The notes: generated by a model from the sequence alone, not told the origin. Positions 2,800 through 59,416 are shown, counted from the stretch's first letter. The stretch: 64,000 bases of DNA from Blastocatellia bacterium (GCA_043775925.1 JAYVRW010000170.1:6578-70577), one strand, 5' to 3'. Numbers and translations are program-made.

Positions 2800-3392
2800 A
2801 AAAAATTGGCGTATTAATTTCCGGGCGCGGCTCGAACATGTTGGCGCTGGCTGATGCTATTAACGAAGGTCGCATTGCAGAGGCTGAAATTGCTGTGGTC
2901 ATCAGCAATACTGCGGAGGCGGGCGGTTTAGCGAAAGCGCAGGAACGCGGTATCGCTACGGCGGTGTTGGATCATCGTGGCAAAAAGCGCGAAGAACATG
3001 ACCGCGCAATGGCAGCAGAGCTTCGCAAATATGACGTAGATTTGGTTTGCCTCGCGGGTTATATGCGCTTGCTTTCGCCCTGGTTCATCCGCGAATTTCC
3101 CAATCGTATTTTAAATATTCACCCCTCATTGTTGCCCGCGTTTCCAGGCTTGGAGGCACAAAGACAAGCAGTCGAGTATGGCGTGAAAATTACAGGTTGC
3201 ACGGTGCATTTTGTAGATGAAGAACTCGATCACGGCGCAATCATCAAGCAAGCGGTTGTTCCCGTTTTGTCCGGCGATGACGACCATTCTTTAGCGCAAC
3301 GTATCTTGGTAGAAGAGCATAAAATTTATGCTGAAGCCGTGAATATGGTGCTGCGTGGAGCCTTCAAAATTGACGGGCGCAAAATTAGCTAA
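2796..3392 (+). CDS. purN: phosphoribosylglycinamide formyltransferase
   Basis: 'ISGRGSNM', 'NIHPSLLPAF', 'GCTVHFVDEELDHGAII' PurN motifs; AAGGA SD. Confidence 0.9.
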   Translation: MKKIGVLISGRGSNMLALADAINEGRIAEAEIAVVISNTAEAGGLAKAQERGIATAVLDHRGKKREEHDRAMAAELRKYDVDLVCLAGYMRLLSPWFIREFPNRILNIHPSLLPAFPGLEAQRQAVEYGVKITGCTVHFVDEELDHGAIIKQAVVPVLSGDDDHSLAQRILVEEHKIYAEAVNMVLRGAFKIDGRKIS

Positions 3393-3706
3393 GAAAATTT
3401 ACGCCGCCTGACTTTATTTCTTACCTGAAGCAGAAAATACGCTGGTTGCAATAGCAATCTGACCATGCTACACATGCATTCCCCTGTAATTAAATATAAA
3501 TTAAGTCTAAGCCCTAATCAGTTGAATGTTTCCTCTCACCCTCCGACTAACGGCACTGCGCCCGAAGTTCAAATTCCTGGCTGTGCATCCGGCTTTATCC
3601 CGTATTACCGTAGCACACTACAATTTCTATTTTGGCAAATGCTAAATAAGGCATTTGTCTAAGTTGCAACCCTGCGGCTTAATTAATCCCAGTCTAGGAG
3701 CAGTAA

Positions 3707-4747
3707 ATGAGATTTAAAGCATTTAAGGCACAAGTGTGTGCTAATCAACACCTGCGGTTTTCCCTTATCATTTTTCTCTGTGCCTTTGCACTCAGCTATA
3801 GTTTTATTTTCCCCACACCACAGCACGCCCAAGCAACCACTACGCTTGATGTCGAAGAACAAGCATTTCTCACTCTCATTAATAATTATCGCCAGCAAAA
3901 CGGCTTGTCATTGCTACAAGCATCAGTGACTTTAACCAATGCGTCCAAATGGATGAGCGCTGACATGGTCGCGAAAAATTATTTCAACCATACAGATAGT
4001 TTGGGACGCGATCCGTTTGTACGCATGGGAAGCTTTGGTTACAACTTCAACACGTATAAAGGCGAGAACATTGCAGCGGGTTACAGTGACGCTGCCAGCA
4101 CATTCAATCAGTGGAAAAATTCGGCAGGACACAACGCCAATATGCTGGATCCAAATTACAAAGTGGTCGGCATCGGGCGCGTCGCCAACACAGCAGCAAC
4201 GTACTGTTATTATTGGACAACTGATTTTGGCGGCTATGTGGATCAGGTTATTTCTCCAACGGGAAATCCCACTCCCACCCCAATCCCAACACCGACACCG
4301 ACTCCAGCGCCTGTCACTGTTGCCATTCTCAATCCGAGTTTTGAAAATGGAATAACAAGTTGGACGCCGAGTGGTTATGTTTATCGTACGACGAGTTATG
4401 TGACGAACGGATCATACGCGGCATTGCTCTATGCAAATACGGGTAACTCGTCGTTTATTTCCCAATGGTTACAACTGACCGCCGGAGCCACTTATGAAAT
4501 AAGCGGTGACTTTCGCAACGATCCACGCAATGCTGCAATATTAGGCGTGAAATGGGAAAATAATGCTGCCGGGCCTCTGGTGCAATACAACCCAGCCGTA
4601 AGCGCCGGACAGGGACAGACCTTAAAGGTACGCTTCACGGTGCCTGACGGAAGCGGCAAAGTCAGCGTGTATATCAAGGCGACGGGAAGTTCTATGAACT
4701 TTTACTGGTCAGTCGTAGATAATTTAACGATTGTGCGTGTGAATTAG
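3707..4747 (+). CDS. secreted CAP/SCP-like domain protein with PT linker and C-terminal carbohydrate-binding-like beta-sandwich domain
   Basis: Signal peptide; CAP-domain motifs 'GENIAAGYSDAASTFNQWKNSAGHNANMLDPNYKVVGIG'; 'PTPTPIPTPTPTP' linker; AGGAG SD. Confidence 0.7.
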   Translation: MRFKAFKAQVCANQHLRFSLIIFLCAFALSYSFIFPTPQHAQATTTLDVEEQAFLTLINNYRQQNGLSLLQASVTLTNASKWMSADMVAKNYFNHTDSLGRDPFVRMGSFGYNFNTYKGENIAAGYSDAASTFNQWKNSAGHNANMLDPNYKVVGIGRVANTAATYCYYWTTDFGGYVDQVISPTGNPTPTPIPTPTPTPAPVTVAILNPSFENGITSWTPSGYVYRTTSYVTNGSYAALLYANTGNSSFISQWLQLTAGATYEISGDFRNDPRNAAILGVKWENNAAGPLVQYNPAVSAGQGQTLKVRFTVPDGSGKVSVYIKATGSSMNFYWSVVDNLTIVRVN

Positions 4748-4767
4748 TAGCTCTGCTCATCTGCACA

Positions 4768-4812
4768 AAAAAGAGCCTGCTGGCATTTATCGCGAGCAGG
4801 CTCTGATTTTTC
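4768..4812. terminator. bidirectional Rho-independent terminator between convergent CAP-domain gene and wzt
   Basis: GAGCCTGCT...AGCAGGCTC stem flanked by A-run upstream and T-run downstream. Confidence 0.5.
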
Positions 4813-4832
4813 TTCAAGATTGAACGTTAATT

Positions 4833-6119
4833 TTACGCGAGGCTGGAATCTGCCGAGCGAACTTCAATCGTTTCAGTCGGTGGCAGCAAACGCCATTGTT
4901 GCGGTGTATAGAACATCCCGCGCACAGATTTTCCAGGCAGCACTTTCAGGATGTACTGACGCGGTTTCAAATCATACGGCGCAACGGAACCGCGCTTACT
5001 GAAGATGCCGTCTACTTTATAGATTCCCGGCGTTAATCCGAATTCGCTGCAATCGAATTCAATAATGCCTTCGTCGGGCAACACTCCAATTTCCGGGCCG
5101 TTAATTGCTGTGGTCAAGTGCGAATACAAACGATCATCCGGTGAGTAGAAGAGCATTTCAAAAATCGGGTCTTGGATGGCGCTGTAGGTTTTGTAATGAA
5201 TCCGCGCAATCAATTTATCCCCAGTCGAAATGGTATCCGTTTCCTGTCCATCGCCGTTGTGGAATTTCACGCTGATAATTTCAGCGTCCTGACCATATAA
5301 TGAAGTCTTCGTTTCAATCGCTAAGCCGGTATTATTCTGCGCGATTTGTGCAGTTGATTTTTTCGCAAACAACACTTCATTGTAATAAACGCTAATTACT
5401 TCCTGGGGCTTACCGCTGGCACGAACTTCGCCTTTTGACAGGAAGACTACGCGATCACAGAGACGCTCAACGGCAGGCATATCGTGCGAGACGAAAGCGA
5501 TGGTCATTCCGTCACGTCGCAGTTCTTCGATACGCTGCTGACATTTGCTTTGGAAATTCGCGTCACCGACGGCGAGGACTTCATCAACTAATAAAACGGA
5601 AGGATGGATATGCGCGGCGACGGCAAATCCTAAACGAACATACATGCCCGAAGAGTAGCGTTTGACAGGTGTATCAATGAATTTTTCCATTTCGGAAAAC
5701 GCGACGATCTGATCAAATTTTTTGGCAACTTCGGCTTTCTTCATGCCCATAATTGAGCCGTAAAGAAAAATATTTTCGCGTCCTGTTAATTCAGGATGGA
5801 AGCCTGCACCGACTTCAATCAACGAAGCCACGGAACCGTTGACTTCGATTTTGCCTTCGGAAGGATAAATAATTCGCGCCAGCAATTTTAGTAATGTACT
5901 TTTCCCTGAGCCATTCGGACCAATAAATCCAATGGTTTCGCCACGTTTGATTTGTAAATCTACCTCTTTCAGCGCGAAAAATTCATCGCTTCCGGCTAAG
6001 CCTCTGGAGCTTGGCAACAGGTTTTTGGTCACCCGCGCCAATTCTTCACGAATAGATTTTGAACCCAAGCGGCTGAGGCGATATTTTTTGGAAACTCGAT
6101 CTAAGACAACAATACTCAT
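4833..6119 (-). CDS. wzt: polysaccharide/O-antigen ABC exporter ATP-binding protein (Wzt/TagH type) with C-terminal substrate-binding domain
   Basis: Walker A 'GPNGSGKST', signature 'YSSGM', Walker B '[11 protein letters not shown]'; start set at ATG 6119 ([13 protein letters not shown]); the ORF-track N-terminal extension was rejected. Confidence 0.85.
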
Positions 6120-6207
6120 AAAACTGTTTCGAGTTTCGAGTTTTGGGTTTCGAGTTATGAGAGACCTTCTTACCTCGAAACTCGAAATCCGAAAACCCGA
6201 AACTAAT
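6120..6207. repeat. intercistronic imperfect palindrome built of TTTCGAG/TTTCGGG heptads (PAL-1 family, copy 1) between wzm and wzt
   Basis: Left arm gtttcgagtttcgagttttgggtttcgag pairs with right arm ctcgaaactcgaaatccgaaaacccgaaac. Confidence 0.6.
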
Positions 6208-7131
6208 TTAAACCAGATCTGCGAACTCGCGTTCCAGATGTTTGAAATATTTATACGAACCCCAGAGTAGGAACAGTGAAATCGCTGTCGCGATTCCAAG
6301 TAATTTCAGGTCGGGAGTTAAACCCTGTACGACGCACTTGCGATAACTGTCAATAATCACAGCCATCGGATTTAGCGTCATATAGGCGGTATAAAGCGCT
6401 TCGCTTTTGTCTCTGACACGCGAGGCTGGGTACAAAATCGGAGTGGCAAACATCCAGATTTGAATGACCAGTGGCATCGCATAGCGAACGTCACGATACA
6501 GTACGGTGAAGGCTGACAGCAAAAATCCCATGCCAACTGTAAAGATTAACTGGATTAGCATGACTGGAACGATAAAAATGACGTTCCAATTAATCGTGAC
6601 CTGATCGTGATAGAAAATCAGCAACCCGATAAAAATTACCGATGCCACGAGAAAGTCAAAGAAAGCCGCCAGCACACAAGACAGTGGAATAATTTCACGC
6701 GGGAAATAAATCTTGGTGATGATGTAAGAATTCGTAATCAGGCTGGGAATAGCAAACGACATGGAAGTCGAAAAGAACGTCCACGCCAATAATCCCGTGT
6801 AGGAAAATAACGCGTAAGGCATTCCGGTATCGCCCTTCATTCCGGCAAAATACGAAAAGAACAAGCCAAACACCAGCATCAGCGAAAGTGGTTGCAAGAC
6901 TGCCCACACTGCGCCCAGCGCCGTTTGTTTATAGCGAATTTTTAATTCACGTTCCGTTACTAATTGCAGCAACTCGCGGTGATTAATCAATTCTTTGAGA
7001 TGGGAAAAAGTGCTATTACTCCACTCAACTTGTCCCTTTAACTCCTGATCCGAATGCTCGATGTCGTGAGGTGGGGGGGTAGTGAGGAGAGCCTCTGATG
7101 TGACTTTGTTGTCAACTGCTGTAGCAGGCAT
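6208..7131 (-). CDS. wzm: polysaccharide ABC-2 type exporter permease (Wzm/TagG type)
   Basis: Six TM segments; '[20 protein letters not shown]' and 'KIYFPREI' ABC-2 motifs; start set at ATG 7131 with AGGAG SD (the ORF-track extension was rejected). Confidence 0.8.
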
Positions 7132-7255
7132 ATCTATATTTTCAAACTCCTGTTTCCTTGCTAATGCGACCAGGCAATGTAGCAGTGAGCTTTTAGCGAC
7201 TAATGAGGGGAGATGATTCGGCTCGCTTTCGCTCAAGAAATGGTACCGAATACAA

Positions 7256-8560
7256 CTAAATTTTTGTTCGACTTTCAGACGGCTGGTTTTCCTGCCAAGC
7301 CTGAGTTTCTGCATCGGGGACACCGACACCATTCAATAATCGGACACCTTTTAAGGGAGCCAGTCGTTCATAAATCTCAGCATATTTAATCGCAATTTGC
7401 GACCAATCACGCTGCTTGACGATTTGTGCTCGCGCCCGTTTACCTAATTCTTTGCGCTCAATTGGATTGTTCACCAATTGCGAAATCCGTGCGCCTAAAG
7501 CAATTTTATCATCAGTCTCGACAACGAAGCCAGTTTTGTTGTGACGGAGTAATTCAGCCATCCCTCCAACATTGCTACCAATCACAGCGCATTCCATCGC
7601 CATCGCTTCCAGCGGTCTGATCGAAGTCGTTAATTCCGTCATCCGCGTACTCAACCGAGGGTAAACACAAATATCAATGACCGAGTAATAACGCAGGATT
7701 TCTTCCTGCTCAATGCGTCCGGTGAAGACAAAATGCTCATTCCATTCACGAGGAATTTTAGTCCGCAACACCGCCTCCGTCTCACCTGACCCGGCGAGAA
7801 TCAATTTGATGTCACGCCGCTCGCGTAACAAATAATTCATCGCCTGAATTAATCTTTCAAGACCTTCGTACTTATAAAAAGAACCAATGAAACCGATGAC
7901 GGTTTTGCCTCGCAGTTGATGTTTTTCAATCAGCTCTATGTCCGGTGGGCGAGGACTAAAAACCTGTGTATCTACGCCTTCGGGAACTTCCAGTAATTTT
8001 TTTGCCGAGAAGCCGCGCGCCATCAACTCACTACGCATTGAATTTGAGGTCAGAATAGTCAGATCAGCTTCTTTAATAGCTCGTTCTTCCATCCATCGGG
8101 CAAATCTATACCGCGCACTATAGGGATTCGCCTGTCCACTATCCACAGCGGCATCCTGCTCATAGTAGCGTAGTTCGTAAATCCACGGCTTTTTCAAATA
8201 ACGTGCGGCTCGCCGCGTCGCCAATCCATTCAGAGCCGGCGAATGGGCATGAATCAAATCTGCCTCGCAATCACGTGCGACTTTGACGATCCGCTTAGCT
8301 AAGGCCGCGAGATAAGCTTCGTGGCGTAACAATGGCACGAAGCGAGGTTGCGGCAAAAAATAAAATGAAGGCCAACTAGAGCGATGATGCTGAACTCCCT
8401 GAAGAATTTCAAAATCTTCGCCCGGACTTTCATGACTCGGTGACGTTAATACCACCGGATTCAACCCCATCTGACGCTGGTTAGAAATAACGTAGCTGCT
8501 GCGAAAACTGTACGCACTCAAATAGGGCAGTGAATGATCTAAAACGTGGAGCACTCTCAT
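7256..8560 (-). CDS. glycosyltransferase family 4
   Basis: GT-B fold motifs; C-terminal 'EGLERLIQAM...ILAGSGE...FVFTGRI' GT4 pattern. Confidence 0.8.
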   Translation of the reverse strand: MRVLHVLDHSLPYLSAYSFRSSYVISNQRQMGLNPVVLTSPSHESPGEDFEILQGVQHHRSSWPSFYFLPQPRFVPLLRHEAYLAALAKRIVKVARDCEADLIHAHSPALNGLATRRAARYLKKPWIYELRYYEQDAAVDSGQANPYSARYRFARWMEERAIKEADLTILTSNSMRSELMARGFSAKKLLEVPEGVDTQVFSPRPPDIELIEKHQLRGKTVIGFIGSFYKYEGLERLIQAMNYLLRERRDIKLILAGSGETEAVLRTKIPREWNEHFVFTGRIEQEEILRYYSVIDICVYPRLSTRMTELTTSIRPLEAMAMECAVIGSNVGGMAELLRHNKTGFVVETDDKIALGARISQLVNNPIERKELGKRARAQIVKQRDWSQIAIKYAEIYERLAPLKGVRLLNGVGVPDAETQAWQENQPSESRTKI

Positions 8561-8662
8561 TGCTTTTGTGGTTAGCTTAAAAAAGACACTTTGGTACGGG
8601 GAATCAGTAAGATTGGGGATTTAAGCTGTTACTGCGCAATTATTAACACCCTCACCCTTTCC

Positions 8663-9757
8663 TTACGGAAAATTCTTAACCAGTGCTGGACCAATAATTT
8701 TTGTTACTCCGAAAGGTAACTTTTTCCAAAGATTAATCATCATTTCATATTTTGGATTCGTCGGATTCAGATTCGGCATTTCCTGTGCTTTGACGAGGTA
8801 AAATTGATAGGGTAAAGCTTTCATTTCCATCCCCCATCCGCGTTTGAATTCAAACGCTCCGGTCCCATTTTTGCTGCGCCCGAAATCGAAGCGAGTGTAC
8901 CCGCGTTGAGCCGCCGATTGCATCAATGCCCAGTACATATAATTGTTGATACCAGCACGATAAAATTCACCGTAAGCACCTCCGTAGTAAGGCATTACGG
9001 TATCACGGAAGTAGAAATTCAAGACCCCACCTGCGACTTTGTCGCCCTGTCGAATCAGGAGAATATCACTTTCGTTCGGAAACTCACACAAAAACGTGGC
9101 AAATAATTTTTTGGGGAAAACCGGAGTGCCAAGATGATGCACACTGGTAGCATAGACTTCGTAGAATTCATCCAATAATTCTTCACGCCCCAACTGAGCC
9201 GTTAGCTCATTTTTGATTCCTTTACGAATCATGGTTCTGATGTCGCGTGGAAAAGTTTTCATGAGAGCTTCTTCGTCAGTCGAAATCGGATGTGCAAAAG
9301 TGAAATATAAATCTTTACGATGTAAGTCAGGGTCTACAGATTCGGTTTCAAAGGCATTGCGTAGTTCAAGAAAATCCACTTGTAAACTGGTCGCAATTTT
9401 TTTTGCTTCAGCGATTAAGGCTTCGGCAGAAGCCTGGTCTTTCGCCACGGCTCCACCGTAAACGGCATTTGGCGATGAAACCAACATTGAACCGAACAGG
9501 CGACTTTTAACATGAAAAAGCGGCAAAATGCCTGTGATTTCAGACCCGCGTTCAGCGAGCAAATGATAGGCCGAATGCTTCCAGACGCTTGCCACGACGC
9601 GCGCCCACCCGCTTTGATGACAAAAGGTCGCCGCCGCTTCGCTTGCCACGAGAGCATCCCAGGCCAGAACATCCTGAGCCTGAAATGCACGAACCTTCAC
9701 TGTATGTAATTGAGCTGAGTTGACCGATGCCACGATCTGCGCAGTTGCTGATTCCAC
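8663..9757 (-). CDS. FemAB-related (GNAT-fold) protein, PEP-CTERM/exosortase-locus type
   Basis: GTG start with AGGAAAT SD; FemAB/GNAT-like architecture; fits the PEP-CTERM-associated FemAB family by length and position next to the deacetylase. Confidence 0.6.
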   Translation of the reverse strand: MESATAQIVASVNSAQLHTVKVRAFQAQDVLAWDALVASEAAATFCHQSGWARVVASVWKHSAYHLLAERGSEITGILPLFHVKSRLFGSMLVSSPNAVYGGAVAKDQASAEALIAEAKKIATSLQVDFLELRNAFETESVDPDLHRKDLYFTFAHPISTDEEALMKTFPRDIRTMIRKGIKNELTAQLGREELLDEFYEVYATSVHHLGTPVFPKKLFATFLCEFPNESDILLIRQGDKVAGGVLNFYFRDTVMPYYGGAYGEFYRAGINNYMYWALMQSAAQRGYTRFDFGRSKNGTGAFEFKRGWGMEMKALPYQFYLVKAQEMPNLNPTNPKYEMMINLWKKLPFGVTKIIGPALVKNFP

Positions 9758-9770
9758 AATATTTCCTATT

Positions 9771-10649
9771 CTAATTCGTCGCCAGCGCTAGTGCTTGCAA
9801 GCCTAAATTCCGGTTCTCCAAGACCTGTCTGACGGGGGCGAAAGAAAAATCTTTCAGGAGTTGATTCAGCCGGCTCTCAGTACGATTCAAATTCACCCGA
9901 TGCCGCCAAATATTTAATTTAGTACCAGGAATTATAGGTTGTTCGGGATCAACTTCCCAGGGATGTAAAAAGAAAATCGCTGGTTCCGATTCACGCCGAT
10001 GAAGTGTTTGCCACCCTAATTTGAAAAGCTTATACGGCAGCAACCGAAAATACCCGCCACCTGAAATCGGAATATTCGTCCCACCTATTTGTACTGTCGA
10101 AGGAGGAAATTCAATAATTTCCCCGGCTGGACGATGTAGCACATGCGGGAATCTTTCAGCATCTGGAATGCCGTAGCGGTCATGTTTCGTCGGGAAAATA
10201 GATGAATCGTATTTGAAACCTTCTTCAATTAAAATATCCAAAGCCCACAAACTTTTTTCGGTAATCGAATAGGTCGGCGCACGGTATCCAATAACCGGAG
10301 CACCAATTATCTCTTCCAGTAATTGCTTGGATTTTCTAAGATCTTCTCTGAATTCTTCAGGAGTTTGTTGGTAAATAAGGCGATGATGGAAACTGTGACA
10401 GGCAACTTCGTGCCCAGCGTTCGCAATTTGCTTAACCAGCTCAGGATGCATTTCAGCGACATAGCCCAAAATAAAAAAAGTCGCCTTGACATTATGACGC
10501 GCGAACATTTCCAATAATAAATTAGTATTTCGCTCGACCCGTGATTCCCACTTCGGCCAGTCTTCACGACAGACCACCTGAGAAAAGGCTTCGACCTGAT
10601 AATAATCTTCGACATCAACTGTTAGCGCGTTCAGCATTCCGTTATCCAT
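9771..10649 (-). CDS. polysaccharide deacetylase, XrtA/PEP-CTERM-locus subfamily
   Basis: N-terminus '[18 protein letters not shown]', 'HSFHH' CE4 motifs. Confidence 0.75.
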
Positions 10650-10952
10650 CACACCCTTGAAACTAATGGTTGAATATTCTGATTGTATTGTGAAACTTTT
10701 GTATTTAAGTCAAGCATACCTTCACAATAATCTTCGATGAGAAGTAGTTGGATCCTCTTGAAGGGATCAGAATGGTAAGCAATGTCCCTTGTTAAGTCGT
10801 AGGTTGCAGCGTTTTAAGGGCTTTATACGTGAGGCCAACCTTAATTGAAATAATAGCCTTGATACTAGAGTTTAGACAAGGGGAAATTCGTTGCCTCTTC
10901 ATTGTAATGTTGTCACTCTTGAGTGAGGGGTAGCTTCAAGCTCGGCGTTCAC

Positions 10953-12164
10953 TTAGACAATCGGCAGATTATCAAATGAAGCTAATGAAGAATAGTTACT
11001 AAAGTTACCCCATGTCGAGAAATCTGACTTCTTTTGTACTTTCTGTTGCTCAGCTCGATTGGCTTTTGTGAGCCGCCACTTGAGCTGACCGGATAATTCT
11101 TCAGCAAAACAAATGAGTTGCTCTGAAGTGAAAGAGCGCAAAAGATGTTTTTGCATTTCCTGCTCCATCTTTCGGCGATGATCGCTGACTGACGAATCAG
11201 ACATGCCAACCATGTCTGCAATGACTAACTGAGATGGTTCAGTTGGGTCAAAATAGTAATGCCATAAAATACGCCAGAATTTTTCCGTTCGCAGTGGTTG
11301 AAAACGTGTTATGCGATCTACTTTCGCCAAAAAGTCATGAGCGGCACGGCGTGCCAGCATTTCCTCTTCACGGCGCAGGTTAATTCCTTCGGGACAATCA
11401 TTTTCAGAAATTATCATTTTCTCCCACGAATGAGAACCTTCCGCCTGTTCCGAAATTTGATCTATTGAAGACACTTCAGCGTCATAAATAGGAAGCCTCG
11501 ACAAAGCAAGCGTTCGCAACGCTCGCAGGGAAATCGGTGAATCCAGTTGCTTGAAAATTTCCTCTAATAATTCTACTAATTCCTGATTGGTTACGATTAC
11601 CTGCGCGTCACCCTTGCACCCCACCCGCCGCCGATTGCGAATTCTGGCAGGGACGTTAGACATTAATTCTTCCAGTTGGGCAATATCCTTGACAGATTTA
11701 TCAGTACCCCATTCTCGTAAGCCGTAGACAACATTCACTGCCTGACGATAGCGCGCTGTTTGATGAGGTTCCGGTGAGCGAAAAATTTTGAAACGTGGGT
11801 CAGATTCGAGCAAGCCACTAATGCGCCTGACGATTCGATAATTTTCAGGCTGCTTACGACGCAACGTCCCGATCAGCATGTTGGTCAATTCGACCTGAAA
11901 AATTTCGCGCTCAATTTCTGTATCACTCATCTCATCTTGCAGATAATGTTTGAAGCGCGACTTCTCCAATAATAATAAATACAGGTCTTGTGTTAAATCC
12001 GGGAGGGATAAAAGCGAAGTTGTATTTTTAGCATTATGTTGATTGCGCTGTGCTGAGCGGATCAGTGGATGGATTGAAACCAGACGGTGGAGTGATTGCC
12101 ACAGCGTTGCGTCATCATTATTTTCGAGCAACGATTTCCAGGACTTGGTGGAGACAGCTTTCAT
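10953..12164 (-). CDS. hypothetical regulator with sigma-70 region-4-like HTH
   Basis: 'WRILWHYYFDPTEPSQLVIADMVGMSDSSVSDHRRKM' resembles sigma region 4; start uncertain (track start is TTG at 12227; first ATG at 12164 has no obvious SD). Confidence 0.35.
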   Translation of the reverse strand: MKAVSTKSWKSLLENNDDATLWQSLHRLVSIHPLIRSAQRNQHNAKNTTSLLSLPDLTQDLYLLLLEKSRFKHYLQDEMSDTEIEREIFQVELTNMLIGTLRRKQPENYRIVRRISGLLESDPRFKIFRSPEPHQTARYRQAVNVVYGLREWGTDKSVKDIAQLEELMSNVPARIRNRRRVGCKGDAQVIVTNQELVELLEEIFKQLDSPISLRALRTLALSRLPIYDAEVSSIDQISEQAEGSHSWEKMIISENDCPEGINLRREEEMLARRAAHDFLAKVDRITRFQPLRTEKFWRILWHYYFDPTEPSQLVIADMVGMSDSSVSDHRRKMEQEMQKHLLRSFTSEQLICFAEELSGQLKWRLTKANRAEQQKVQKKSDFSTWGNFSNYSSLASFDNLPIV

Positions 12165-12816: not shown

Positions 12817-12893
12817 GCGCCTGTAGCTCAGCTGGATAGAGCACTAGACTTCGAATCTATAGGTCGGGGGTTCGAATCCCTCCGGGCGCACCA
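12817..12893 (+). tRNA. tRNA-Arg (anticodon UCG)
   Basis: Cloverleaf read by hand: acceptor GCGCCTG/CGGGCGC, anticodon loop CTTCGAA, T-loop TTCGAAT, CCA encoded. Confidence 0.9.
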
Positions 12894-13011
12894 TTAAACT
12901 CCAAAATAATTTTCCATCTGTAGGGAATTCAAATGAAAGCGGGTTCAGAATCCGTCTGTCTCTATGATAAAATGATTATTCTTTAATTTGAAACTAAGAG
13001 TGAGGTTACTC

Positions 13012-13982: not shown

Positions 13983-15209
13983 ATGACTAATGAAGCGATT
14001 CTTGCGCTGGAAGATGGGCGCATCTTTCGTGGCACAGCCTGCGGCACTTCCGGTGAGTGTACGGGGGAAATTGTTTTCAATACTTCGATGGCGGGCTATC
14101 AGGAAATTCTCACCGATCCATCCTACGCCGGACAAATCGTGACGATGACGTATCCGCAGATCGGCAACTATGGCGTCAATCCCGAAGACGTTGAATCGCG
14201 TCGTCCTTTCATTCAGGGATTTGTCGTCCGTGAGATGTCCGAAGTCACTTCCAACTGGCGCGCTACGATGTCGCTGGATGATTATCTCAAGGAATACGGG
14301 ATCGTTGGAATTTCTGAAATTGATACGCGGGCGCTGGTTCGCCACATCCGCGAAAAAGGCGCGATGCGTGCCTGTATTTCTTCCGTAGACCTCGACGAAA
14401 AAAGTTTGATTGCTAAAGCCCAGGCTGCGCCGTCAATGCTTGGACGAAATTTAGTGGATGAAGTCACGTGTGGCGATAGCTACGAATGGTCAGAAGCCAT
14501 TGAAGCCATCGCCGGAGAGAAACTCCACCGCACCGAAGCGCTTGACGAATTCGCAGTGAATTTCACTCCGCACGAAGCCTTGGAAATGAGCGGCACTATC
14601 AACACGGAATCTTTCCACGTCGTCGCTTACGATTTCGGTATCAAATATTACATTTTACGTTATTTGGCTGCGCTGGGTTGTCGTGTGACCGTAGTTCCGG
14701 CGCGAACTTCCGCTGCCGATGTTTTAGCCATGAATCCCGATGGAGTCTTTTTATCGAATGGTCCCGGTGATCCGGCTGCGCTCGAACCCATTGTTGACGA
14801 AATCAAAAAACTGGTTGGAAAAAAGCCAATTTTTGGAATTTGTCTGGGACATCAGGTTTTGGGAGCAGCTTTTGGCGGGACGACTTTTAAATTAAAATTC
14901 GGACATCGTGGAGGCAATCAGCCGATCAAAAATACACGGACCGACAAGATCGAAATCGCCGCGCACAATCACGGCTTCGCGGTTGATCCGAACAGCCTGA
15001 ATCAGGACGAAATTGAATTGACGCATTGGAATATCAACGACCATACACTGGCTGGAATCCGCCATCGGACGCTGCCAGTATTTTCCGTGCAATACCATCC
15101 TGAATCCAGCCCGGGTCCGCACGATTCAGCGTATTTGTTTCATGAGTTTATTGCGGATATGAAAGCGTTCCGCGATGGCGTCAAGCAAAAAGGACAGGGG
15201 AAGAGTTAA
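13983..15209 (+). CDS. carA: carbamoyl-phosphate synthase small (glutamine amidotransferase) subunit
   Basis: CarA N-domain plus 'GICLGHQ' class-I GATase triad region. Confidence 0.9.
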
Positions 15210-15217
15210 GAATTTTC

Positions 15218-15312
15218 AGACAGGATTTACAAGATTTTTTGCAGGATGAACAGGACTTACGTGCAAGAATATGACTTGTAAATCTTGTCTTAAAATCTTG
15301 TTAATCCTGTCT
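15218..15312. repeat. MITE/REP-like element with 21-bp terminal inverted repeats AGACAGGATTTACAAGATTTT / AAAATCTTGTTAATCCTGTCT (PAL-2 family, copy A), 8 nt after carA stop
   Basis: Arms are reverse complements with 1-2 mismatches; the internal segment has a partial extra arm copy; a related copy lies at 35821-35880. Confidence 0.6.
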
Positions 15313-15349
15313 AAAAAAAACTCTTCCCCGAAAATCTTTTTCCTGAAAA

Positions 15350-15637
15350 CTATGAACCCTGCCAATGTTTTTTTGGGCTTGGCAATTTCTCCGGCAAGTC
15401 AATCGCGTCATCCACCAGCACATCAAGACAGACATTTGCTAATCTTGCGTAGCGCAAGAGTTCCAATAAATTAGGTTCTCTATAACCAAGTTCATTTCCG
15501 GCAATCGCCATATAGCCAATTGTTTCTTCCAATCCTAACCGATACAACATTTCAGTTTGTGACAGATTTAAAGCCAGTCGAATCTGTTGGAGCTTTTCTG
15601 CAAGGCGTTGAGGTCTGGGTCTGGCTAAGCGTCCCAT
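15350..15637 (-). CDS. XRE-family helix-turn-helix transcriptional regulator
   Basis: 'LQQIRLALNLSQTEMLYRLG' HTH_XRE; ATG with GGGAGGA SD. Confidence 0.7.
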   Translation of the reverse strand: MGRLARPRPQRLAEKLQQIRLALNLSQTEMLYRLGLEETIGYMAIAGNELGYREPNLLELLRYARLANVCLDVLVDDAIDLPEKLPSPKKHWQGS

Positions 15638-15888
15638 CAGGAAATTCCTCCCGATGAAAACGCTTGCAACTTATTGTTAAAGCTGCTATTTCTATTTACA
15701 AATACTTGCGTTCCTAGAAACCACGTCGCCGAGAGCCTACTCAGTTTGTGCTCTCCGACGGAATCCATCACGACTTGTTTAGAGACGGACTACGCATTTT
15801 GCTTAGTTCAATTGTCAAAGGTTAAGGAGTAAAAATACCAGACTCAGAAGCAATTACCAATGCTTTGTGCGGGTATCTTTACAGTATA

Positions 15889-15914
15889 TTTCCTCATGAA
15901 ATACCGTGAGGAAA
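15889..15914 (+). promoter_or_regulatory. 5'-UTR hairpin immediately upstream of SD of Cys-rich protein gene
   Basis: TTTCCTCA-tgaaataccg-TGAGGAAA 8-bp stem ending 1 nt before the AGGAG SD. Confidence 0.35.
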
Positions 15915-15927
15915 AAGGAGAAAAATT

Positions 15928-16554
15928 ATGTCGAAAAAAACTTCTCGTGTATCATTCGTTTTGTTGGCTGTAGGGTTAATTGCTGTCGTAGCGATCCTTG
16001 TCGCAGTGCAAAAATCTGCTACCGCAAACAGTCGTTCATCACTGAGTGCGGCTATAATTATAGATGATGAAGCAGTGAGAAAGTATAAAGGAATGGCAGC
16101 TTTATCATCTGAAGAAAGAAAAAATATTTTTCGTGAATCTTCAGCAAATGATAAAAGTGCGCTGTGGCAAGTACATTTTTCAGAGTATAAGAAAGCTCAC
16201 CCAGACCTTTCACCGGAGCAAATAAAGGTTCTGGAAGAGGCGGCGAATTTAGCAATTCCGCTCACTTTCAGTCTTCCTGGCAATCAGCAAATCAAGAATG
16301 CGGTAATTGGTAAGGCTCTACAAAATTTGAGGAATCATGCAGTAGCTACTTTTTCGCAAGACGAAGCAAGAAAGTTATTTGCCCAATTAGGGAATGCTGA
16401 AGCTTCTATTGTAGTAAGAAGGGACTGTAATTGTAGCACTATTGATACTTGGTGTGGTGGAAATTATTGTCGTGACCACGCATATAACGGGTGTAGTACA
16501 TCAGATTGGGGATGCGGAACTCTCTGGATGGCAAGTTGTAATGGTGGTTGCTAA
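15928..16554 (+). CDS. secreted/membrane-anchored protein with C-terminal 8-Cys module (candidate disulfide-rich peptide precursor)
   Basis: N-terminal signal anchor; 'RR' then C-terminal 'DCNCSTIDTWCGGNYCRDHAYNGCSTSDWGCGTLWMASCNGGC' (8 Cys in the last 42 residues); AGGAG SD; AT-rich codon usage. Confidence 0.5.
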   Translation: MSKKTSRVSFVLLAVGLIAVVAILVAVQKSATANSRSSLSAAIIIDDEAVRKYKGMAALSSEERKNIFRESSANDKSALWQVHFSEYKKAHPDLSPEQIKVLEEAANLAIPLTFSLPGNQQIKNAVIGKALQNLRNHAVATFSQDEARKLFAQLGNAEASIVVRRDCNCSTIDTWCGGNYCRDHAYNGCSTSDWGCGTLWMASCNGGC

Positions 16555-16663
16555 AGTTTTTCAGGAAACGCAGTTAGAGTTACTTTAACTGCGTTTCTAT
16601 TTGTTGGTTCTTAGTGAGTAATGACCAATCACAAAAGAGGTAGCTCTAATCGGAGAATAACTT

Positions 16664-17524
16664 ATGAAAATAAAACGTATAGCACTGCTCTTTGTGGTTT
16701 CTTTGCTATTAACCTTACTGATCTCTCCACTTCGTGGGTTTGGCTATGGTATTAAAGCGTCGTCATTAGTCGGATTTACCTTGTATTTTATTTTTACAAT
16801 AGTAGGTATTCGAAGGTCGGCTAATGTCTTACAACCTGCGCAAATCACGATGGCAATTGTTGCGGGGCTTTTCCTGATTCAGCTACCTATGAGGATTCGT
16901 TTTTTCACCGCAGGGTTATTTTCTTTCCCGGATTTTATCTTACATTTTCTTGGCATTATGTCTGGACTTGCATTCACTAACCTTCGTAGTCCGCAAAGAT
17001 GGTTGACTACTGGGCTGGGTTTTTTCCTGACATTAACTATGTGCGTTAAGGGCTATGATATGTGGCTTCATAGACTTAATTACGGGACATTTACAGGTAA
17101 GGTTTTATACTCCTTACCAGCAAAGTTTGAAGCCTTCGACGAAAGTAAATCCTTGATAACAGATAAAGATTTTACGAATAAGGTAGTTATCCTTGATTTC
17201 TGGAATACGAGTTGTGGTATCTGTTTTCAAAAATTTCCACAGCTTCAGAAGTTTTACGAGAAGCATAAAACTGAGACGACGCTTCGCATTTTAGCAGTTG
17301 ATACGCCGCTTGAAGATGACAAGGAAGGTGACGCTTTTAAAGCAATAAAAGATGAAGGACATAGCTTCCCTGTAGTTATTACCAAAGAAGCTAACTTAGC
17401 GGAACAATATGGAGTGACGGGTTATCCAACTACTTTTGTGATTGACCAAAAAGGCAATATTGTATTTCGAGGCGATCTTGAACACGCAACAAAGTTAGCG
17501 GAAGAGCTAATAAAATCAAGCTAA
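16664..17524 (+). CDS. membrane-anchored TlpA/ResA-like thiol:disulfide oxidoreductase (4 TM + thioredoxin domain)
   Basis: Four N-terminal TM helices; 'ILDFWNTSCGICFQ' CxxC active site; cis-Pro 'GYPTTFVIDQKGNIV'. Confidence 0.7.
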   Translation: MKIKRIALLFVVSLLLTLLISPLRGFGYGIKASSLVGFTLYFIFTIVGIRRSANVLQPAQITMAIVAGLFLIQLPMRIRFFTAGLFSFPDFILHFLGIMSGLAFTNLRSPQRWLTTGLGFFLTLTMCVKGYDMWLHRLNYGTFTGKVLYSLPAKFEAFDESKSLITDKDFTNKVVILDFWNTSCGICFQKFPQLQKFYEKHKTETTLRILAVDTPLEDDKEGDAFKAIKDEGHSFPVVITKEANLAEQYGVTGYPTTFVIDQKGNIVFRGDLEHATKLAEELIKSS

Positions 17525-24830: not shown

Positions 24831-24851
24831 GTGCAGAAAAGTCCTGAAATA

Positions 24852-24890
24852 AAAAAGCGTCGAATGAGAAATCACTCGACGCTTTTTTAT
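24852..24890. terminator. bidirectional Rho-independent terminator
   Basis: AAAAAGCGTCGA-loop-TCGACGCTTTTTT between convergent genes. Confidence 0.6.
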
Positions 24891-24922
24891 TTGTTGTGCG
24901 ATTTCATCAATCGCGATCTCAG

Positions 24923-34690: not shown

Positions 34691-35812
34691 ATGTTTTATC
34701 ACCTGTTTTACAAATTACTATTCGAGCAATATTCACAGGTCTATCCATTTCTGAAGGCTTTCAATGTTTTCAAATACGTGACGTTTCGTACGGCCTACGC
34801 GACGATTACTGCGTTGGTCATTAGCTTGGTACTTGGACCGTTGCTGATTCGCAAGCTGCGCGAATTTAAATTCGGACAGGAAATTCGAGAAGATGGCCCG
34901 GCGCATCATCAGGCCAAGAAAGGTACGCCAACCATGGGCGGAGTCATGATTATTGGCTCTGTGCTGGTTTCCTCTGTGCTGTGGGCAGATTTGCGGAATA
35001 GTTATTTGTGGGTCGCGTTAGTCGGCACGTTGGGTTTTTCGCTGGTTGGATTTCTGGATGATTATCTGAAGATCAAAAATAAACGAAGCCTTGGCTTGAA
35101 CGGAAAACAAAAACTTTTAGGACAATTTAGTACCGCATTAATCGTTGGTCTGATGCTGAAATATATGACCAATTATAGCTGGGTTTTGAGTGTTCCATTT
35201 TTCAAGGAATTCCAGCCGATCCTGCCGTTTGTCGTGTATCTCGGCTTGATCATGCTCTTCACCGTTTTTTGTTCCAACGCCGTGAATTTAACCGATGGAT
35301 TGGATGGTTTGGCGATTAGTGTCACAGTCGTCGCAGCCTCCGCGTTGACGGCTTTGGTTTATGTTTCAGGTCACGCGAAGTTTGCCGAATATCTTGATCT
35401 GGTGCGAACGAGTTCGGTGACAGGAGATTCTCCGATTGCTGAGTTGACAGTGTTAGGCGGAGCGTTAGTCGGAGCCAGCCTTGGCTTTCTCTGGTTCAAT
35501 GCCCCACCCGCCGAAGTTTTCATGGGAGATGTGGGGTCACTTGGCATTGGAGGCGCACTGGCAACCATCGCGGTCATCATCAAGCAGGAAGTAGTGTTGG
35601 GAATGATTGGTGGAGTTTTTGTTATCGAAGCCTTATCCGTGATGATCCAGGTTGCTTCATTCAAGACGACAGGTAAGCGCGTTTTTAAGATGTCTCCGCT
35701 GCATCATCATTTTGAATTATCAGGCTGGAAAGAATCAAAAATCGTTTTTCGTTTTTTAATTGCGGCTTTGTTATGTGCATTTTTGGGGCTTTCGACTTTG
35801 AAATTGAGATGA
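34691..35812 (+). CDS. mraY: phospho-N-acetylmuramoyl-pentapeptide transferase
   Basis: 10-TM profile; '[13 protein letters not shown]', 'MGDVGSL' MraY motifs. Confidence 0.9.
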
Positions 35813-35820
35813 GTAATACG

Positions 35821-35880
35821 AGACAGGATTCACAAGATTTAGAACAGGATTTTTAGGATAAACCTTTGTTCATCCTGTCT
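35821..35880. repeat. MITE/REP-like palindromic element (PAL-2 family, copy B) in mraY-murD intergenic region
   Basis: AGACAGGATTCACAAGATTT ... CATCCTGTCT, 8 nt after the mraY stop; related to 15218-15312. Confidence 0.6.
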
Positions 35881-35887
35881 GATAAAA

Positions 35888-37231
35888 ATGGAAATTCAAG
35901 GCAAAAAAATTCTGGTGGTTGGATTAGGTAAGAGTGGTCTTGCCGCCGCAGAATTTTTGACTTCACGCGGTGCGATTGTGACGGCGAATGATGCGCAGCC
36001 TGCTGAAAAAATTGCAGAGGTGGTTAATCGGCTGATAGAAAAAAATATTGAAGTTGTCGCAGGATCGCATCCGATTCCGTTATTTGAAAATTCAGATTTA
36101 ATTGTAGCCAGTCCGGGTGTTCCCTTAGCGCTGGAATGTTTTCAAAAAGCCAAAGCCGCAGGCGTTCCCATCATCAGTGAAATTGAATTGGCAGCGCATT
36201 TTTTACGCGGACGGTTGATTGGCATTACGGGGTCAAATGGAAAAACTACCACTACTACCTTGATCGGCGAAGTTTTGACGAATGCCGGATTTAAAACGCA
36301 GATTGGTGGAAACATCGGCACACCATTGATTTTATTGGCTGATGCTTCGTGTGACGATGGCTTGACGGTGATCGAACTCAGCAGTTTTCAACTGGAAGCG
36401 GTTGAATCGCTCCATCTTTTTGCCGCAGTGATGCTGAACATTACACCGGATCATTTGGATCGTTACGATTCGATGAATCATTATGCGGCGGCGAAAGAAA
36501 ATATTTTTCGCAATCAAACTTCTCAGGATTTAGCTGTTCTGAATGCTGATGATGAGCGTGTCGCAGCCATGACCACTGCCGCGCACAATGTTTTTTTTAG
36601 CAATAAAAAGGAATTGGAAGAAGGAATTTTCCTACGCGGTAATGACGTGATATGTCGTGCCAATGGGGTCGAAAAAGTTTTGATTGCTTGTGATGAAATC
36701 GGCATTCGTGGTGCGCACAATTTAGAAAATGTCATGGCAACGTTGGCGATTGGTTTAGCTTGCGGCGTCGAGCCGGATTCAATGCGCAAAACCATTAGCG
36801 AATTCAAAGGCGTCGAACATCGCCTTGAATTTGTTGCTGAAATTGACAGCGTAAATTTTTACAATGATTCAAAAGCCACCAACGTTGATTCAACCATCAA
36901 GGCACTTGAAGCGTTTGAGCGTGGCGTAATCGTGATTCTGGGAGGCAAAGATAAAGGCAGTGATTATGCGCCGCTTGCTTCACTCGTTCGAGAACGTTGC
37001 GAGCAAGTAATTTTAATTGGGTCGGCGGCTGACAAAATCGCTGCGGCACTTGAAAACACGAAGCCATTGCATCGTGCTACTACGATGGAAGACGCCGTTA
37101 AGTTAGGCAAAAAACTTGCGCAACCTGGGAATACGGTTTTATTGGCTCCGGCCTGTGCGAGCTTTGATATGTTCGATAATTACGAGCATCGTGGCAGAGT
37201 TTTTAAGTCAGCAGTTTTGCAATTGGCTTAA
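35888..37231 (+). CDS. murD: UDP-N-acetylmuramoylalanine--D-glutamate ligase
   Basis: '[12 protein letters not shown]' P-loop; MurD domain order. Confidence 0.9.
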
Positions 37232-52025: not shown

Positions 52026-52068
52026 AATAAACCTTCCTCAGTGTAACTATAGCCCAGATGGTAAGTAA

Positions 52069-52153
<85 letters not shown>

Positions 52154-59283: not shown

Positions 59284-59416
59284 CCACTAAAAAGTAGCAT
59301 AAACTTTTAGTTTGTGCCGAGTGCAAATGCTTCTAATCTGTCGGGCATCAAGAGCTTTTGCCAGAAGATTGTCTGAAGAAATAAGCCCAAACTGAAAGTT
59401 TATGCCACGTTGGAAA

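Follow-up and report, generated by a model that had tools for sequence, protein, structure and literature searches.

Results

Two palindromic elements downstream of carA and mraY

The stretch of DNA analysed here, referred to below as the window, comprises 64,000 nt from a Blastocatellia bacterium (GCA_043775925.1, JAYVRW010000170.1:6578-70577) and carries two copies of a small palindromic element, of which copy A follows carA and copy B occupies the spacer between mraY and murD. An earlier note on this DNA had taken both copies for a small mobile element of the type of MITEs (miniature inverted-repeat transposable elements) or repetitive extragenic palindromes (REPs), possibly doubling as a terminator or attenuator. 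The genes and element parts at the two sites are as follows.

13983-15209, plus strand: carA, with its stop codon (15207-15209) 8 nt 5' of copy A
15213-15317, unstranded: full palindrome of copy A, extended by a short T-run/A-run beyond its core element at 15218-15312 (95 nt)
15218-15238, plus strand: outer 5' arm of copy A, two 9-nt units, AG + ACAGGAT-TT-ACAAGAT-TTT
15241-15256, plus strand: inner 5' units of copy A, GCAGGAT-GA-ACAGGAC, paired with 15272-15291 in the predicted fold
15272-15291, plus strand: inner 3' arm ("partial third arm") of copy A, GACTTGTAAATCTTGTCTT, from the inverted-repeat scan and the predicted fold
15292-15312, plus strand: outer 3' arm of copy A, AAAATCTTGT-T-AATCCTGT-CT
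34691-35812, plus strand: mraY, with its stop codon (35810-35812) 8 nt 5' of copy B
35821-35880, unstranded: copy B, a decayed 60-nt member in the mraY-murD spacer, recognised by arm and unit matches and with a weak fold
35821-35850, plus strand: 5' arm of copy B, three units in register with copy A, AG + ACAGGAT-TC-ACAAGAT-TTAGA-ACAGGAT
35863-35880, plus strand: 3' arm of copy B, with a single intact unit, CTTTGTTC-ATCCTGT-CT
35888-37231, plus strand: murD, with its start codon 7 nt 3' of copy B

The near-identity of the arms at the two sites was confirmed, as the 20-mer AGACAGGATTYACAAGATTT, at up to 3 mismatches, has exactly three matches in the window, at 15218-15237 (plus strand), 15293-15312 (minus strand) and 35821-35840 (plus strand), against an average of 0.03 in shuffled sequence. 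Similarly, the 9-mer AGACAGGAT occurs 4 times in the window (0.36 expected), solely at the four element termini. The 26-nt arms of copy A (15213-15238 and 15292-15317) are 92% complementary and contain, together with the centre, the units ACAGGAT at 15220, ACAAGAT at 15229, CAGGAT at 15242 and ACAGGAC at 15250, with the mirror counterparts ATCTTGT (15282 and 15295) and ATCCTGT (15304). The internal third arm that had been described for this 95-bp copy was also recovered, the inner repeat 15275-15296 being 91% complementary to 15212-15233, and the predicted hairpin reaches -39 to -39.7 kcal/mol (z = -7.1 on the plus and -8.6 on the minus strand). Copy B has the units ACAGGAT at 35823, ACAAGAT at 35832 and ACAGGAT at 35844, with ATCCTGT mirrored at 35872, and its first 30 nt match copy A in register; the match of its right arm is limited to the terminal 9-13 nt and its RNA fold is weak (z = -1.1 on the plus and -4.1 on the minus strand), so that this 60-bp hairpin is weaker than had been implied, with a right arm that is mostly decayed. 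A motif-cluster scan found no further copies in the 64 kb of the window.

A widespread family built of 9-nt units

A scan with the pattern AGACAGGATTNACAAGATT, in which each of 185,579 species was represented by a single genome (a 596-Gb collection), matched at least 118 genome loci, where about 17 chance matches would be expected over the whole collection; the element is thus not confined to the two window copies. Chance similarity of two AT-rich intergenic hairpins, in favour of which the few copies in the window could be cited, is refuted by the shuffle counts and by these family-wide matches, and is left with virtually no credence. Among the loci listed, as classed by their record titles, 46 belong to Acidobacteriota, the phylum of the window, and mostly to Blastocatellia and Pyrinomonadaceae, while the others fall to Verrucomicrobiota (13), Bacteroidota (13), Planctomycetota (7), Chloroflexota (about 7), Pseudomonadota (6), Lentisphaerota (4), Bacillota (4), Kiritimatiellota (3), Nitrospirota (2) and Sumerlaeota (2), with one each from Nitrospinota, Desulfobacterota, Armatimonadota, Marinimicrobia and an actinobacterial metagenome-assembled genome (MAG). 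The range of the repeat therefore extends over at least 14 phyla, plus plasmids and phage-like contigs, and its carriers include the isolate Verrucomicrobium sp. BvORR034 (three contigs), closed long-read chromosomes, and the complete plasmids of Thiodictyon syntrophicum Cad16T and Spirosoma oryzicola, where the repeat lies in unannotated intergenic DNA. A dispersed palindromic family of the MITE/REP type, as proposed in the earlier note, is upheld by this distribution, but a strain- or genome-specific one is not, given its occurrence in at least 14 phyla. Copy density is 2 per 64 kb in the window and 23 extra clusters per 833 kb of loci after exclusion of the 118 clusters assumed to have retrieved these loci; the murD loci of relatives, about 440 kb in total, yielded a single family member.

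Each arm is a tandem array, usually of 2-4 copies, of the 9-nt unit ACA(G/A)GATT+N, and the two arms are inverted, the element being capped as T/AGACAGG...CCTGTCT/A (slashes mark its borders) and forming an imperfect hairpin of 45-95 nt. The 833 kb of loci from the species scan contain 141 unit clusters, as compared to 0 in shuffled sequence, and these include 70 closed hairpins in forward-then-reverse order (median 66 nt, range 43-95), 3 clusters in the opposite order and 64 single arms. Successive units are spaced at 9 nt in 79 of 97 cases with a spacer base that is mostly T, A or G, and about 40% of the units read ACAAGAT. The Pyrinomonadaceae copies have in common a 66-nt consensus with an ACATGT centre, of which copy A is a variant with an expanded centre. 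These observations establish a real, widespread and modular palindromic repeat family. No Rfam family was matched, as the window gave tRNAs only at gathering thresholds, copy A at E <= 10 gave sub-threshold generic miRNA-hairpin noise, and 11 well-formed loci gave no match; literature searches on the literal sequence, on GxxExxY, PDDEXK_3 and intervening-sequence proteins, on heptamer and nonamer repeats and on Acidobacteria MITEs returned analogues only and no description of the repeat, and the family appears to be undescribed.

A T stands at position -1 in 83% and an A at +1 in 84% of the copies, and further out the flanks are T-rich on one side and A-rich on the other. No target-site duplication, for which the earlier note had proposed a check, is visible at either window copy, where the flanks read CA...TA (copy A) and GA...TG (copy B), and the sole flank signal of the family, T before and A after, is compatible with a TA duplication and equally with an extended palindrome. 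Comparison of the two arms of one hairpin with random arm pairs revealed no covariation, the agreement at variable positions being no better than that of random pairs (20 of 42 as compared to 16.1 expected at N1, 21 as compared to 15.8 at N2, and, with an ascertainment caveat, 19 as compared to 23.6 at the G/A position). As the units are conserved across phyla without covariation of the arms, it would be the unit sequence itself, and not the mere stem, that is read by a factor. Such conservation points to a sequence-reading factor or to a common source, and argues against a purely structural RNA that is free to drift.

The same pattern could be accounted for by a binding array for a sequence-specific protein, whether a DNA regulator, a nucleoid protein or a CsrA-like protein acting on RNA, in which case the palindrome would be incidental. 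Conservation without covariation, the regular 9-nt period, the many single arms of exactly three units, some of them just 5' of a ribosome-binding site, and the resemblance of ACAGGAUG to the CAGGAUG repeats of CsrB would all suit such an array. However, about 40% of the units (ACAAGAT) are without a GGA core, the units of the hairpins lie in the stem and not in loops, the elements are placed at 3' ends rather than at promoters, a scan found no sigma-70-like promoter, and no candidate protein turned up; furthermore, the bias of 70 to 3 in favour of the forward-then-reverse order implies that the palindrome is not incidental. A binding array is therefore regarded as quite improbable.

The single arms show no clear preference in orientation relative to nearby start codons, in a test that is noisy in high-GC DNA. 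In five loci from rumen Kiritimatiellae and Lentisphaerae (L050, L061, L084, L117 and L118) a conserved GC-rich hairpin and T-run (e.g. atttgcgtgggccgtcgcgggaaggttttt) is found directly 5' of a single 5' arm, and this arm is followed by the ribosome-binding site and start codon of small membrane-protein genes.

Gain, loss and inversion among close relatives

Comparison between relatives revealed presence/absence and structural polymorphism at both window sites, the element having been gained, lost, rearranged or inverted over about 10-15% nucleotide divergence. Downstream of copy A the following two features are relevant.

15313-15366, unstranded: downstream flank of copy A, 54 nt, with 80% identity to L214 and L200 although different genes lie beyond it
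15350-15637, minus strand: 95-aa open reading frame (ORF) without Pfam match, convergent on copy A and first gene of the window-specific island

For copy A the comparison covered 16 loci, drawn from the 19 sequences of a CarA cluster at 90% identity. All 16 agree in gene order (Iron_traffic, signal peptidase, carA ... DUF58, MoxR), and the stretch between carA and the DUF58 gene is occupied in the window by the 95-aa ORF and the genes for a 208-aa Cys-rich and a thioredoxin-like protein, in L200-202 and L214-215 by a serpin gene (with LprI in addition in L214-215), in L203-205 by two small ORFs, and in L206-213 by a 92-aa ORF and LprI. The copy A element is present in L200-202 and L214-215 (5 loci) and missing in L203-L213 (11 loci). 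Where it is present its flanks are kept (left, GAATT...; right, ...CACCCGAAAATCTTTTTCCTGAAAATTATCAGCCCTGCC), and the right flank enters the 3' end of the serpin gene, a remnant of which is retained in the window, before homology to the relatives breaks after ...CCCTGCCA, near 15366. Copy A had been thought to mark the boundary of the insert encoding the Cys-rich peptide; it does adjoin the island, but as the element and about 54 nt beyond it are kept in the serpin-bearing relatives, the boundary is to be placed near 15366. Against the reverse complement of copy A the L214 element shows 85.3% identity, a value equalled by the 85.2% for the final 600 nt of carA, and over the inner 53 nt the identity is 81% in reversed and 61% in forward orientation. 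The agreement of the reversed identity with that of carA indicates the same insertion, with its centre flipped in place between the 21-nt arms. The L200 element has lost the outer left arm and gained one unit on the right.

The island itself (15350-17524) is a low-GC (37-44%) variable segment between carA and the DUF58 gene; its 208-aa protein is Cys-rich at the C-terminus (...CNCSTIDTWCGGNYCRDHAYNGCSTSDWGCGTLWMASCNGGC) and matches nothing in Pfam, and its third gene specifies a 286-aa thioredoxin/AhpC-TSA-like membrane protein.

For copy B, eight loci were examined from a cluster of 21 MraY sequences at 90% identity or more, and the element is absent from all eight, where the mraY-murD spacer measures 17-18 nt, or 39 nt holding a different small hairpin followed by a T-run. 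This absence in close relatives indicates that copy B is an insertion specific to the lineage of the window, inside the dcw operon. Among close relatives the mraY-murD flanks have diverged too far for the boundaries of a duplication or insertion at copy B to be placed. Of the spacers in 63 relatives at a greater distance, 29 measure at most 40 nt and 30 measure more than 60 nt, and at least 17 contain strong hairpins (-25 to -137 kcal/mol) made of unrelated short units, namely CACGGGGAA, CAAAGGGT, ACGGAAC, TTGGTCA (the cyanobacterial STRR2 heptamer, found as an STRR2-like hairpin in L140) and a GGTAGCGAGCG type, while in the L146 spacer there is no hairpin and TTGAACN units form a direct tandem array. 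To judge from these sequences, the mraY-murD spacer is repeatedly and independently filled by foldback-type insertions.

In Acidobacteriota (L120-L148) this spacer, directly 5' of murD, is a hairpin hotspot with lengths of up to 271 nt and energies of up to -137 kcal/mol, and its largest hairpins, in L124 and L125, are of a GTAGGGGCGGG...-type palindrome. A separate palindromic repeat at 290-377 of the window (GGTACAGTACGGTGAGCGATAGCGAGCTG...CAGATCGCTACCGCTCACTGTACTGTACC, 29-nt arms, 90% complementary), unrelated to the element, belongs to a family (GTCAGTACCGCGAGCGGTAGCGAGCG...) that fills the mraY-murD spacer in the relatives L123, L128 and L129.

Position at gene 3' ends

Both window copies start 8 nt after a stop codon, as the earlier note had observed, and proximity to stop codons holds for the family also, the exact spacing being no family trait. 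By crude ORF-based gene calls, element-to-stop distances range across the family from about -18 to several hundred nt, with about half at 20 nt or less, and as they vary so widely the spacing of exactly 8 nt is taken to be coincidental. At several family loci the terminal TAG of the element doubles as the stop codon. By gene context, 37 hairpins are in tandem, 17 in convergent and 2 in divergent arrangement (17 versus 2, two-sided binomial p about 0.0007, again by crude ORF-based calls), and a preference of the family for gene 3' ends and short spacers is thereby evident.

Such a position, with a strong stem right after stop codons and between convergent genes, would suit an intrinsic terminator or attenuator, as would the T-rich spacers after some hairpins of the phage-like contig L230 (see below). 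However, no U-tract follows either window copy on either strand, nor do the closed hairpins of the family have one, the stems are AT-rich, and the family flanks are the mirror image of what a terminator has, with a U-run before the stem and an A-run after it on both strands; a terminator and promoter scan found neither at copy A. In addition, a terminator at copy B would do harm, as the element lies 7 nt before murD within the essential dcw operon. The terminator or attenuator role that had been suggested for the element was accordingly abandoned as highly improbable. An ordinary bidirectional intrinsic terminator does occur in the window at 24847-24892, and with its A-run, 21-nt arms of 95% complementarity and T-run it is unlike the element; the organism thus does employ terminators of the usual kind.

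Arms on phage-like contigs

The IMG/VR contig 3300029267_003210 (L226/L230, 59% GC) carries a module of structural genes, among them those for a capsid-protease fusion and a tape measure, and in L230 (IMGVR_UViG_3300029267_003210, 3275-11004) arms are present at nearly every intergenic junction (3275, 5053, 6607, 7595, 8405 and 10901). The usual layout is a 3' arm, a T-rich spacer of about 22 nt and a 5' arm, located 10-25 nt before the next start codon. L227, likely a Verrucomicrobium prophage, has four same-strand single arms among other unit types, including the variant unit ACAGAATT. With a second viral pattern (GACAGGATTNACAGGATTNACA) about twenty more viral contigs were found, mostly of high GC content, in which isolated three-unit arms lie in short spacers, some directly 5' of a ribosome-binding site. 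The consensus hairpin gave no blastn match among INPHARED phages.

The hairpin loops of L230 hold another unit family (GATTTAAGATT / GATTTCAGA), which was also found in the mraY-murD spacer of L145. The matches of L238, and probably of L254, to GACAGGATTNACAGGATTNACA were discarded as collagen-like Gly-X-Y coding repeats; in L238 (viral contig, 33% GC) the 9-nt-period arrays at 4185-6391 (CCTGTGTATCCTGT...) represent Gly-X-Y coding on the opposite strand, a source of false positives for unit searches.

The arms at nearly all structural-module junctions of L230 raise the alternative that they are not selfish DNA at all, and rather represent a form of RNA punctuation beneficial to host or phage, i.e. 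cis-acting processing or stability signals under selection such as RNase III sites. In the early region of phage T7, RNase III cuts the polycistronic mRNA into stable units. The arms also bracket ordinary single genes in several genome loci, the preference for gene ends is strong, and the stems extend over 25-35 bp with periodic mismatches, a form that generally suits RNase III. Against this stands the lack of the element at both sites in some close relatives, which give no hint of impairment, the occupation of the same spacer elsewhere by unrelated hairpins or by none, and the absence of a sense-strand stability bias; moreover, RNase III has little sequence specificity and thus fails to explain a 9-nt unit conserved across phyla. 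RNA punctuation, for which the phage contig is the best support, is unlikely on this evidence.

GxxExxY genes enclosed by arms

No autonomous element with the same termini and a transposase was found in the genome, viral or plasmid loci, and the only recurrent cargo is a GxxExxY gene. In the Blastocatellia loci L032, L033 and L119, the arms enclose an ORF of 115-142 aa with its start 10-12 nt away from an arm; L023 has the ORF flanked by two complete hairpins, and in L041 it is accompanied by one arm. The ORF specifies a GxxExxY protein (PF13366 PDDEXK_3, E = 2.7e-41), a large family without a function known to us. The arm-enclosed genes are located as follows.

L032, 2171-2632: GxxExxY gene between arms
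L033, 4879-5330: GxxExxY gene between arms
L119, about 3080-3531: GxxExxY gene between arms
L023, 2011-2549: GxxExxY gene between two hairpins

This ORF is present at 5 of the 118 loci listed, and is found neither in the window nor in most of the phyla sampled; L032 and L119 carry the same orthologous insertion in two Blastocatellia species, leaving few independent cases. On plasmids, GxxExxY genes are found beside arms made of other 9-mers in Treponema (CACGGATT) and Gemmatirosa (CGCGGAT-based units), while two of four plasmid-borne GxxExxY genes have no convincing arms. This suggests a wider superfamily of 9-mer foldbacks, the unit sequence of which may track the GC content of the genome. 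Other ORFs beside single arms or between arm pairs were, by eye, ordinary genes, such as those for an HtrA-like protease, a major facilitator superfamily (MFS) transporter, a HAD hydrolase and membrane proteins.

The arms on the Treponema saccharophilum plasmid (L234; 346-361 and 791-806, CACGGATTCG) are near its GxxExxY gene, as is the hairpin or set of arms GACGCGGAT GCCGCGGAT CACGCGGAT at 802-874 on the Gemmatirosa kalamazoonensis plasmid (L235).

It is conceivable from these loci that the hairpins are the ORF-less form of arm-ORF-arm cassettes, and that a PD-(D/E)XK protein of the GxxExxY type reads the units or a cruciform and spreads both forms as a homing system. The arm-ORF-arm loci, the hairpin-ORF-hairpin and one-arm arrangements, the PF13366 match and the association of GxxExxY genes with other 9-mer arms in Treponema and Gemmatirosa would fit such a system, as would the AT-rich flanks, since these favour cruciform extrusion. 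The small number of loci with the ORF, none of them in the window, the few independent cases and the two plasmid genes without convincing arms weigh against it, and we know of no nuclease activity on hairpin or cruciform DNA of this kind. A cassette or homing system thus seems rather doubtful.

Other repeats and rejected identities

The window also contains an inverted repeat at 59291-59411 (27-nt arms, 85% complementary, 67 nt between the arms) and a 31-nt inverted match between 12866-12896 and 52066-52096, where two oppositely oriented tRNA genes (12817-12890, plus; 52072-52153, minus) match in their 3' parts. Resemblance of the unit to a DnaA box, a LexA box, sigma-70 -35/-10 elements or CsrA/PUF-type sites was considered, and none fits well enough. 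A CRISPR array or integron attC site was rejected, as each copy stands alone with inverted and not direct repeats, and neither cas nor intI genes lie in the vicinity. A link to rRNA intervening sequences was likewise dropped, as no rRNA motifs are present in any locus.

Discussion

The element at the 3' ends of carA and mraY is somewhat probably a non-autonomous foldback insertion of a REP/MITE-like kind, which secondarily serves as a 3'-end or intercistronic hairpin and is not an intrinsic terminator. As the comparison of relatives shows, the elements are insertions that come and go at gene 3' ends and in short intercistronic spacers, where arms are lost and units gained, and the centre of an element can flip by recombination between its own arms. 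As the elements encode nothing, they would have to be spread in trans by an enzyme, and the mobilising factor is likely to read the sequence of the 9-nt unit and not the stem alone. Once transcribed in the 3' end of the upstream gene, the stem would, by analogy with REPs, most probably form a barrier to 3'-exonucleases and/or a double-stranded target of the RNase III type. Copy A would in this manner bound the convergent carA transcript, while copy B could couple or uncouple the expression of mraY and murD: a ribosome that terminates on mraY would overlie the first part of the 5' arm, and 7 nt separate the 3' arm from the murD start codon, so that, by way of speculation, initiation at murD may be coupled to translation of mraY.

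Several observations weigh against a foldback insertion with such a secondary role. An empty site with both flanks conserved was not found among relatives, and the plasmid regions of Spirosoma and Thiodictyon have no PLSDB homologues. By eye, the copies share no likeness beyond the units and show no sign of a recent transposition burst, and the copy count in the source genome is known only as 2 per 64 kb. No transposase or RAYT-like gene was recognised beside or between arms in the 118 8-kb loci listed, which were inspected by eye without a Y1 domain search. Since single arms account for 64 of the 141 genome clusters and for most of the viral ones, and some lie directly 5' of a ribosome-binding site, the unit array rather than the hairpin may be the functional entity. 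Lastly, the 37 hairpins in tandem context show no sense-strand stability bias (Wilcoxon p = 0.62), apart from slightly more G-U pairs on the sense strand (61) than on the antisense strand (40), and selection at the RNA level is consequently not demonstrated.

A bolder extension, to which we would assign only a slender chance, is that the ACA(G/A)GATT foldbacks form one cross-phylum class of mobile gene-end elements with sister families built on other units, and that its coding form carries the PD-(D/E)XK GxxExxY nuclease in the loop, this nuclease or another unit-reading factor recognising the tandem units or the extruded cruciform and copying the arms, with the ORF or without it, to new sites. 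Candidate sister families may be those of CACGGGGAA and CGCGGATnn (9 nt), CAAAGGGT (8 nt) and TTGGTCA (7 nt). Such a class would explain the unit shared between phyla, its conservation without covariation, and the repeated occupation of one spacer by different hairpins.

For the window, the two copies amount to two ordinary repeat insertions and not to a regulatory device specific to carA or murD. What is unusual lies at the level of the family, whose arms of 9-nt modules, range over plasmids and phage-like contigs as well as at least 14 phyla, inversion in place and, at some loci, GxxExxY cargo form a combination that looks undescribed. Small palindromic repeats are usually described from one or a few related species, and here a 19-nt arm of 9-nt units is common to many phyla. 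If this holds, the family would offer a tractable case of a horizontally spreading non-coding hairpin with GxxExxY as a candidate partner, would help annotators to spot spurious ORFs and the intergenic "punctuation" common in soil and rumen MAGs, and would allow insertion tolerance to be tested inside essential operons, here at mraY-murD.

Comparison with known systems

In its behaviour the element comes closest to REPs, REPINs and MITEs. MITEs resemble the element in having terminal inverted repeats, a length of less than 500 bp and no ORF, in their intergenic location and insertion polymorphism, and in that the T...A flanks would fit a TA target; bacterial examples are Correia/NEMIS, ERIC, RUP and the cyanobacterial Nezha (IS630 type, with TA duplication). 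The family differs from MITEs as it has no demonstrable target-site duplication and no autonomous insertion sequence with the same ends, and as the internal sequence, apart from the units, is not kept between copies. REPs and REPINs are characterised by tens to hundreds of copies per genome, and REPIN-RAYT systems are said to be inherited vertically. With REPs and REPINs the element shares a non-coding extragenic palindrome, two inverted repeats forming a hairpin (n = 70), the position after genes or between convergent genes and variability between strains; these elements are mobilised by RAYTs, which are IS200/IS605-like Y1 transposases, and are thought to stabilise upstream mRNA (PMC3733652, PMC3116915). 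Unlike REPs, it has no GTAG/CGTC tag at its termini and its arms are arrays of 9-nt units and not one 20-40 nt palindrome, while the same sequence occurs in many phyla and on phage-like contigs, REP families being species-specific up to common to related species (PMC3733652).

Short tandem intergenic units, with the same unit in distant phyla, are also known from the cyanobacterial STRR heptamers and the TAACTGA repeats, the latter being present in Beggiatoaceae, Cyanobacteria and Bacteroidetes, and for neither is a transfer mechanism known (PMC4679880). These are mostly direct 7-nt arrays 5' of genes, in contrast to the 9-nt units in inverted arms described here, which are found mainly after genes. 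The element also resembles 23S rRNA intervening sequences, which occur sporadically and have a long stem of inverted flanks around a small GxxExxY-family ORF or none. Those intervening sequences carry small ORFs for four-helix-bundle or GxxExxY proteins and are excised by RNase III; in contrast, none of our loci lies in an rRNA gene, the elements being located in mRNA 3' or intercistronic regions. Although they are eukaryotic, of kilobase scale and mobilised by a known transposase superfamily, and although there is no evidence of homology, it is the Foldback (FB) transposons of Drosophila that come closest in architecture, with long inverted arms of variable length built of short tandem sub-repeats, and a loop with or without an ORF.

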